From sequence record PQ435408.1: a stretch of 64,000 bases of DNA; one strand, written 5' to 3'. This document shows, piece after piece, positions 49,928-50,797 of the stretch (the stretch's first letter is position 1; each line of letters opens with the position of its first letter). The position numbers were made by a program, and so were the translations under genes. The notes beneath the pieces are model-generated. The model was not told the origin of the DNA, ran no database searches, and was given only the letters and a program-made list of their open reading frames with translations. Source of the stretch: Escherichia phage vB_EcoP_CU10EC.

Positions 49928-50084
49928 CGGTAGGATCCAGTGTTACAGATACATGCAATGTATTTGTCATCTGAGTTAACATTAGAGCAGCATTGAAATC
50001 ATCCTGAATACAGGCATATACAATGTCACCCTTCTCACCCTCACACATTACGGGTGTGTCTTTGATGCGGTATTTAGCAGGCAT
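49866..50084 (-). CDS. Hypothetical small protein; its 5' end lies in copy 1 of the downstream repeat array
   Basis: 72-aa ORF; GGAGGG RBS-like sequence close to the ATG. Confidence 0.35.
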   Translation of the reverse strand: MPAKYRIKDTPVMCEGEKGDIVYACIQDDFNAALMLTQMTNTLHVSVTLDPTGDYPCFPIPAHNLEQIHDQS

Positions 50085-50797
50085 ATGCCCTCCCGAAAGA
50101 GTTAATTAAAACCAAAAAAAGACCTCCCGGAGGAGGTCTTATGTTTACTTACTATTTTCTTCAATGAAGCGTCTCATACGTTCCTTTGCTTCATCATGTT
50201 CACGAATTGCTTCGTAGTCGCGAGCAATATAATAAAGACACCACAAACCAATCTCACTTACGAAGACATTACGGGTGTGTCTTTGATGCGGTATTTAGCA
50301 GGCATATGCCCTCCCGAAAGAGTTAATTAAAACCAAAAAAAGAACTCCCGGAGGAGGTCTTATGTTTACTTACTATTTTCTTCAATGAAGCGTCTCATAC
50401 GTTCCTTTGTTTCATCATGTTCACGAATTGCTTCGTAGTCGCGAGCAATATAATAAAGACACCACAAACCAATCTCACTTACGAAGACCAAAAAAAGACC
50501 TCCCGGAGGAGGTCTTATGTTTACTTACTATTTTCTTCAATGAAGCGTCTCATACGTTCCTTTGGTTCATCATGTTCACGAATTGCTTCGTAGTCGCGAG
50601 CAATATAATAAAGACACCACAAACCAATCTCACTTACGAAGATAAACATAAGACCTCCTCCGGGAGGTCTTATGTTTACTTACTATTTTCTTCAATGAAG
50701 CGTCTCATACGTTCCTTTGCTTCATCATGTTCACGAATTGCTTCGTAGTCGCGAGCAATATAATAAAGACACCACAAACCAATCTCACTTACGAAGA
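50045..50797. repeat. Tandem array of four copies (offsets 221, 155, 155 bp) spanning a gene 5' end, a terminator hairpin and the 3' end of the next gene
   Basis: acattacgggtgtgtctttgatgcgg at 50045 and 50266; hairpin gacctcccggaggaggtc at about 50121, 50342 (1 mismatch), 50497; copy 4 at about 50652 has the loop inverted (gacctcctccgggaggtc). Confidence 0.85.
50648..50675 (-). terminator. Intrinsic terminator after the 50676..50915 gene (the array carries three more copies)
   Basis: 9-bp stem aagacctcc / ggaggtctt with loop tccg; minus-strand U-run. Confidence 0.55.

Follow-up and report, generated by a model that had tools for sequence, protein, structure and literature searches.

The window, that is, the whole 64,000-nt stretch of DNA that was analysed (PQ435408.1), derives from a Gamaleyavirus-like Escherichia coli phage (N4-like, Schitoviridae), with phage IME11 as its best match at 92.7% identity. 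The locus under study lies at the junction of two small genes that are both encoded on the minus strand: one for a 72-aa hypothetical protein (49866-50084), a homologue of IME11_40, and one for a 79-aa hypothetical protein (50676-50915), a homologue of IME11_41. The exact 79-aa protein was also found on two metagenome contigs, each of which carries it in single copy. The initial annotation had described a four-unit tandem repeat across this junction, with the copies offset by 221, 155, and 155 bp, and such a repeat is indeed in the sequence where it had been placed, with exactly these offsets between units aligned in register.

The first unit, U1 (50046-50266, 221 nt, i.e., 77+1+65+1+77), is continuous with the upstream sequence and has C at both 50123 and 50189. 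U2 (50267-50487, 221 nt) is bluntly joined to U1 and has A at 50344, which creates a mismatch in a hairpin stem, and T at 50410 (Thr allele). U3 (50488-50642, 155 nt, i.e., 77+1+77) has G at 50565 (Pro allele), and U4 (50643-50797, 155 nt) has C at 50720, begins with a deviating 20-nt tract (50643-50662, hereafter the snap-back tract), and is continuous with the downstream sequence. The three junctions between the units read CTTACGAAGA|CATTACGGG, CTTACGAAGA|CCAAAAAAAG, and CTTACGAAGA|TAAACATAAG. From the 72-aa gene, U1 and U2 each take in the first 39 nt; the 60-nt intergenic region with the hairpin follows, and the unit closes with the terminal 122 nt of the 79-aa gene. U3 and U4 start within the spacer. 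The 39-nt gene start is thus repeated in U2, and the 122-nt gene end is repeated in U1 to U3. The claim that every copy holds a gene start, a terminator, and a gene end is therefore correct for U1 and U2 and has to be corrected for U3 and U4, which are without the gene-start part.

The units are much too similar for chance to account for it. Over 221 positions, U1 and U2 show two differences (C/A at 50123/50344, the stem mismatch, and C/T at 50189/50410), and positions 50663-50797 of U4 are identical to 50132-50266 of U1. When the first 20 nt are set aside, the sole difference of U3 from U1 and U4 is its central site (G at 50565 versus C at 50189 and C at 50720). From U1 to U4, this central site reads C, T, G, and C and is consequently tri-allelic, which had not been noted before. 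The site falls in codon 66 of the 79-aa protein, a putative membrane protein, and on the minus strand the codon alternates among the units between GCA (Ala), ACA (Thr), and CCA (Pro) (50189/50410/50565/50720). The Thr allele (T) is linked to the stem mismatch A, 66 nt away. In all relatives, the tri-allelic site is C (Ala) and the stem is intact.

In U1, the stop codon of the 79-aa gene (50145-50147) is directly followed by a GC-rich hairpin and a U7 run on the minus strand. A terminator scan assigned this element (50119-50140, minus strand, 9-bp stem, 4-nt loop, U7 run) to the 79-aa gene as its intrinsic terminator, and the element recurs at 50340-50361, there with the mismatch, and at 50495-50516. 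Its predicted folding energy was -16.7 kcal/mol, or -10.0 kcal/mol with the stem mismatch of U2. The same place is annotated as "terminator" in PhAPEC5, PhAPEC7, and SP5M, and the stem is invariant in the relatives. Judged from these properties, the native element is a textbook case of a predicted intrinsic terminator. It shares the GC-rich 9-bp stem, the 4-nt loop, and the U7 run with the rho-independent terminators found between two small genes in Gamaleyavirus, and compared with these, nothing about this predicted terminator is unusual after the array is collapsed. The hairpins were as initially described: U1 and U3 read GACCTCC-CGGA-GGAGGTC, U4 reads GACCTCC-TCCG-GGAGGTC, and U2, for which a stem mismatch had been reported, reads GAACTCC-CGGA-GGAGGTC. 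The loop is 4 nt long in all four copies.

The change in U4 is, however, not confined to these 4 nt, as the initial annotation had assumed, but covers 20 nt (50643-50662, TAAACATAAGACCTCCTCCG). Each of these 20 nt agrees with the reverse complement of native 50128-50147, a segment that comprises the loop, the right arm, and 9 nt of the right flank. The left end of the tract is the first base of U4, and the sequence to its left belongs to U3. As a result, U4 carries a 36-nt palindrome (50643-50678) with a perfect 16-bp stem around the loop TCCG (-26.2 kcal/mol, z -7.2) and no U-run on the minus strand. An exact search of viral_contigs and genome_contigs for this palindrome gave no match, and it was carried by no hit of one metagenome scan whose pattern also matches the palindrome. 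A simple inversion between the 7-nt stem arms, one of the two explanations first offered for copy 4, would have left the A-run flank intact, yet the native CCAAAAAAA is replaced by TAAACATAA; since the flank was also replaced, this type of inversion could be excluded for U4. The more general proposal, that copy 4 arose by a strand switch and not by point mutation, stood up well, given the exact 20-nt reverse complement of neighbouring sequence and a loop-only inversion found in the relative L017.

L017 is a metagenome contig (OBRO01000044.1) that is 93 to 94% identical and carries the locus in single copy. At about 992-1019 of its locus, the hairpin reads AAAGACCTCC-TCCG-GGAGGTCTTAGG; only the loop is inverted, the A-run is kept, and both switch points are visible. 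Of 33 loci with a match to the hairpin pattern, no other had its loop inverted; the 33 include some duplicate records and some loci with the same hairpin in an unrelated context. A megablast search of GenBank phages with an L017-type 40-nt query returned no inverted-loop copies, a weak negative since the A-run of the query was possibly masked.

A second terminator hairpin with related variation lies at window positions 3850-3879, inside another repeated region (3491-4017). Its loop is GTAA in the window and in IME11, and TTAC in the Gamaleyavirus AN24P2 (L022, OZ035740.1, 7556-8320), which is an exact inversion of the 4 nt; a second AN24P2 record has the identical sequence. Within the window, two T/G sites in the 5' flank of this hairpin turn mismatches into pairs, by which the 9-bp stem is extended to 12 and then to 13 bp around the same loop, and the G at 3850 converts the TAA stop codon of a remnant small ORF to GAA. 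The intermediate TG state occurs in a relative, BaqKoxi. Stem growth of this kind is a footprint of quasipalindrome correction and of library artefacts at inverted repeats. Only 2 of about 21 strong hairpins in the window carry such variants, and no general rule emerged. The loop inversions seen in the relatives and the stem growth agree with established biology and represent no new kind of event.

Comparison with related genomes gave no trace of the array. In 56 of 56 GenBank relatives, the locus occupies one place per record, and the three metagenome relatives that were compared closely (L017, L020, and L021) likewise have a single copy. U1 is collinear with IME11 and 55 other relatives. In IME11, the two genes are 60 nt apart, which equals the 591 nt observed here minus 531 nt (221+155+155).

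Tandem Repeats Finder detected four further tandem-duplication loci in the same window (3490-4018, 4638-4947, 29526-29912, and 48275-48584) that were absent from the initial annotation. Three of the four consist of two copies of 155 nt with a single mismatch, each time at position 78 of 155, so that the 155-nt unit length is common to four loci, the array and these three. At 48275-48584, the mismatch (G/A at 48352) lies within rIIA, which is split and frameshifted into ORFs of 595 and 310 aa that share 42 residues; an exact-protein look-up with the 595-aa fragment gave no match. At 4638-4947, the duplication (A/G at 4715) splits another ORF. The third locus (29526-29912; C/A at 29603) continues into a perfect 77-nt repeat. 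The 155-nt duplicates are not a multiple of three and break conserved genes. When the second copies were removed, rIIA became a single ORF of 854 aa, as large as IME11_37, and the other split ORF was restored to 211 aa. The fourth locus, which holds the second hairpin with its two T/G sites (3491-4017), has units of 133, 152, and 152 nt, again followed by a perfect 77-nt repeat. The perfect 77-nt tandem repeats are located at 29759-29912 and 3864-4017.

The number 77 recurs throughout these loci. Across the eight inter-unit junctions, the nearest polymorphic (SNP) site on either side lies exactly 77 nt away in 15 of 16 cases and 55 nt away in the remaining one; where U3 meets U4 (50642|50643), the distance on the right was taken to the site at 50720, although the snap-back differences start at 50643. 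The outer limits of the array, too, each have a polymorphic site at a distance of 77 nt. The unit lengths follow the same arithmetic, with 155 = 2×77+1 and 221 = 77+1+65+1+77, the latter corresponding to two variants 66 nt apart. Microhomology at the junctions, which had not been considered earlier, is at most 2 nt and consistent with chance. In a de Bruijn graph, an isolated SNP gives rise to two paths of 2k-1 nt (PMC4333369); with both anchor nodes included this becomes 2k+1, and the 155-nt units would therefore correspond to k = 77.

We also built a simulated k=77 graph from the three haplotypes that the units imply, namely, C-C, A-T, and C-G. The first and last 77-mers of U1, U2, and U3 were exactly the branching vertices of this graph, and internal branching k-mers were present, making the units two-edge paths and not single edges. 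For U4, the first 77-mer was a vertex only if two or more alleles of the central site carried the snap-back. The locus at 3491-4017 showed loose ends beyond this simple model: the first unit has a 55-nt end, which we read as a dead-end tip, the start of the third unit needs a fourth haplotype, and the 77-nt join has no variant nearby.

The start of the window holds a repeat of another type. Positions 1-1734 are 100% identical to 1735-3468, giving a perfect 1,734-nt tandem duplicate from the first base of the window, in which two copies of a tail-fibre/tailspike gene are fused in frame to an ORF of 1,155 aa. The relatives NAN33P5 and K57alpha1.2 have a single 1,735-nt copy. No k=77 signature was detected in this repeat, which places it outside the simple model. 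At 3469, the set of relatives that show homology changes. As a comparison with L024 (IME11 gene 2) showed, the 84-aa IME11_2 homologue is represented at 3451-3567 by its C-terminal third alone, and a NAN33P5-like tail-fibre module upstream replaces the rest. By its homology pattern, position 3469 or thereabouts appears to mark a mosaic boundary typical of host-range module exchange.

We consider it very likely that the array is an artefact of an assembler stringing together alternative versions of one polymorphic stretch and that it is not a real genomic feature. It bears the marks of variant paths or contig ends from a k=77 de Bruijn graph that were bluntly joined, where both the assembler type and the value of k are deduced from the sequence. 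In the sample, the population of a Gamaleyavirus-like phage would have been almost clonal, with a few variable sites, and it would have been assembled by a de Bruijn graph method at k=77. Alternative paths at the variable sites would have been left unmerged, and whole variant paths and contig ends would have been written one after the other with their 77-nt anchors untrimmed. An isolated variant would then yield a 155-nt tandem duplicate (77+1+77), and two variants 66 nt apart would yield 221 nt. On this model, the three haplotypes C-C, A-T, and C-G would give U1, U2, and U3, respectively: U1 would be the genuine single-copy path of the genome, U2 the path of the alternative haplotype, U3 the path of an alternative allele, and U4 the start of the downstream contig or path. 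There is no biological reason for 155-nt units with a centred mismatch to occur at unrelated loci, and serial writing of untrimmed paths produces just this. The copies are accordingly alternative sequences that are present in the reads, with C-C as the major path. The feature is ordinary, and a single copy should be kept by removing 50267-50797.

The same properties are shown by the false duplications that arise in de Bruijn assemblies when variant bubbles or haplotype paths are left unmerged, i.e., adjacent, nearly identical allele copies whose length is set by k, which differ only at the variant and by which genes are spuriously duplicated or broken (PMC4333369, PMC9516828). The literature on false duplications deals mostly with kilobase-scale haplotigs in heterozygous eukaryotes, whereas the duplications described here are minimal bubble paths in a phage. 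They also differ from the published ones in that the units stand head to tail with untrimmed 77-nt anchors, and in that a site with three alleles has given rise to a multi-copy "array."

The copy 4 tract would fit into this scheme if the first 77-mer of U4 ran into a snap-back, consisting of the reverse complement of the right flank, the inverted loop, and the right flank. Such a molecule could arise by two routes. The 3' end of the minus strand could fold back on the 9-bp stem and be extended, or two partly single-stranded fragments could pair via the inverted repeat; by either route, the inversion of the loop would be automatic, with no separate event needed. A strand switch made in silico by the assembler was considered and rejected, as the 9-bp inverted repeat with its asymmetric loop is far shorter than any usual k, and reads carrying the palindrome must therefore exist. 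Because the tract starts with the very first nucleotide of U4, the unit boundary probably truncates the palindrome and is not its true end. The graph model would require the snap-back on at least two alleles for the U4 boundary, which points to a recurrent process as a better fit than one inherited mutation. We think that the snap-back probably originated in vitro, as a library chimera, since chimeric reads of this kind are documented at natural inverted repeats (PMC10908179). During library preparation, a strand can be joined to its complement at a natural inverted repeat such that the intervening sequence is inverted, and the resulting reads are known from both sonicated and enzymatically fragmented libraries (PMC10908179). 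U4 resembles these chimeras (PDSM model) in that the strand is likewise switched at a natural short inverted repeat with inversion of the spacer. The chimeras in PMC10908179 are low-frequency soft-clipped reads, while here the chimera would have entered the end of a consensus contig.

Other explanations of the array and of its variant alleles have to be set against the assembly model. Tandem duplications do arise in phage genomes, as is generally known, and the array is contained in the sequence as given; it could thus be a genuine tandem amplification, formed by slippage or unequal recombination, which added extra terminators and truncated genes and later acquired point mutations and the hairpin inversion. 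We regard such an amplification as extremely improbable: it does not explain why the unit lengths obey 2×77+1(+d) with variable sites exactly 77 nt from every array junction, nor why the same rule holds at unrelated loci, which share the 155-nt length and where it breaks rIIA and another ORF. The junctions also lack microhomology, the array is absent from all relatives compared, and three bases at one central position of otherwise identical copies are what allele paths predict, not what divergence would produce. The four copies, taken as a property of the genome in the initial annotation, could thus not be upheld as such, given the k=77 rule common to unrelated loci and the single copy in every relative. 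Diversity-generating or programmed variation was also considered for the three bases at one site and was rejected, the site being the exact centre of 2k+1 units, as at the other loci. A separate matter is whether the alleles themselves are biological. There is an appreciable chance, though a minority one, that the Thr and Pro alleles, the stem mismatch, and the T-to-G changes by which the hairpin is lengthened stem from systematic errors in sequencing or library preparation, which the assembler kept at very deep coverage. All relatives having C (Ala) and an intact stem would agree with this, as would the fact that 2 of the 5 variable loci are at strong hairpins and show hairpin-templated changes, the artefact class of PMC10908179. 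However, no inverted repeat surrounds the three isolated variants (4715, 29603, and 48352), for which reason hairpin templating was rejected for them, and BaqKoxi, a real relative, has the second hairpin in the TG state.

Even with the array as an artefact, the copy 4 variant could be real and stem from a phage subpopulation with an in vivo template-switch mutation at the terminator, by which the loop would be inverted, the A-run flank would be converted to give a perfect stem of at least 16 bp, and the U-run would be abolished. Template switching is known to produce loop inversions, one-step perfection of stems, and multi-base reverse-complement changes (PMC8794818), and the tract in U4, which is exactly reverse-complementary to neighbouring sequence and as long as the native sequence that it displaces, has this footprint (PMC8794818). 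As in template-switch or quasipalindrome mutations, the changed sequence is exactly the reverse complement of the neighbouring arm and the loop is inverted with its length kept (PMC8794818); in contrast to them, copy 4 shows one switch point only, the other being hidden by the unit boundary. Further points in favour are the loop-only inversions fixed in the relatives L017 (at this terminator) and AN24P2 (at the second terminator) and the T-to-G variants of the second hairpin, which turn its 9-bp stem into one of 13 bp while the loop keeps its orientation, as quasipalindrome correction would. We nevertheless find an in vivo origin unlikely. The conversion starts at the first base of the unit with no native sequence visible leftward, and a heritable patch with native sequence upstream should give a 174-nt path starting 77 nt further left. 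The graph model also needs the snap-back on at least two alleles, and an inverted loop was found in only 1 of the 33 hairpin-pattern loci, which moreover keeps the A-run. The sequence was absent from the public collections searched as well; of these searches, the megablast is a weak negative, as the A-run of its query may have been masked. The two readings make different predictions for the sequence to the left of TAAACATAAGACCTCCTCCGGGAGGTC. A snap-back should continue as ...ATAGTAAG or ...AAATAGTAAG, the complement of the right flank, and a real template switch as ...AATTAAAA or ...GAGTTAATTAAAA.

The most immediate meaning of the misassembly is one of quality control, as the window contains at least five false duplications with a k-mer pattern in addition to one 1.7-kb duplicate. 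The false duplications break rIIA and other genes and invent terminators and pseudo-ORFs, and in this way they mislead annotation, repeat searches, and comparative work. Any annotation of the sequence as given will contain broken genes at the 155-nt duplicates. Elsewhere, the same artefact can be flagged by a unit length of 2k+1, a centred mismatch, and perfect repeats of length k nearby. What remains as biology is a small residue, namely, variants within the sample, including a tri-allelic codon, and the finding that the 4-nt loops of two phage terminators have been flipped in nature, a known consequence of template switching. It is doubtful whether the hairpin-specific variants, i.e., the form at 50643-50678 and the two T-to-G changes at 3850-3879, are real in vivo template-switch products that segregate in the population. 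If they were, then, taken together with the fixed inversions in L017 and AN24P2, template switching during replication would have recurrent hot spots at the intrinsic terminators of N4-like phages, where a terminator could be created or destroyed in one step.
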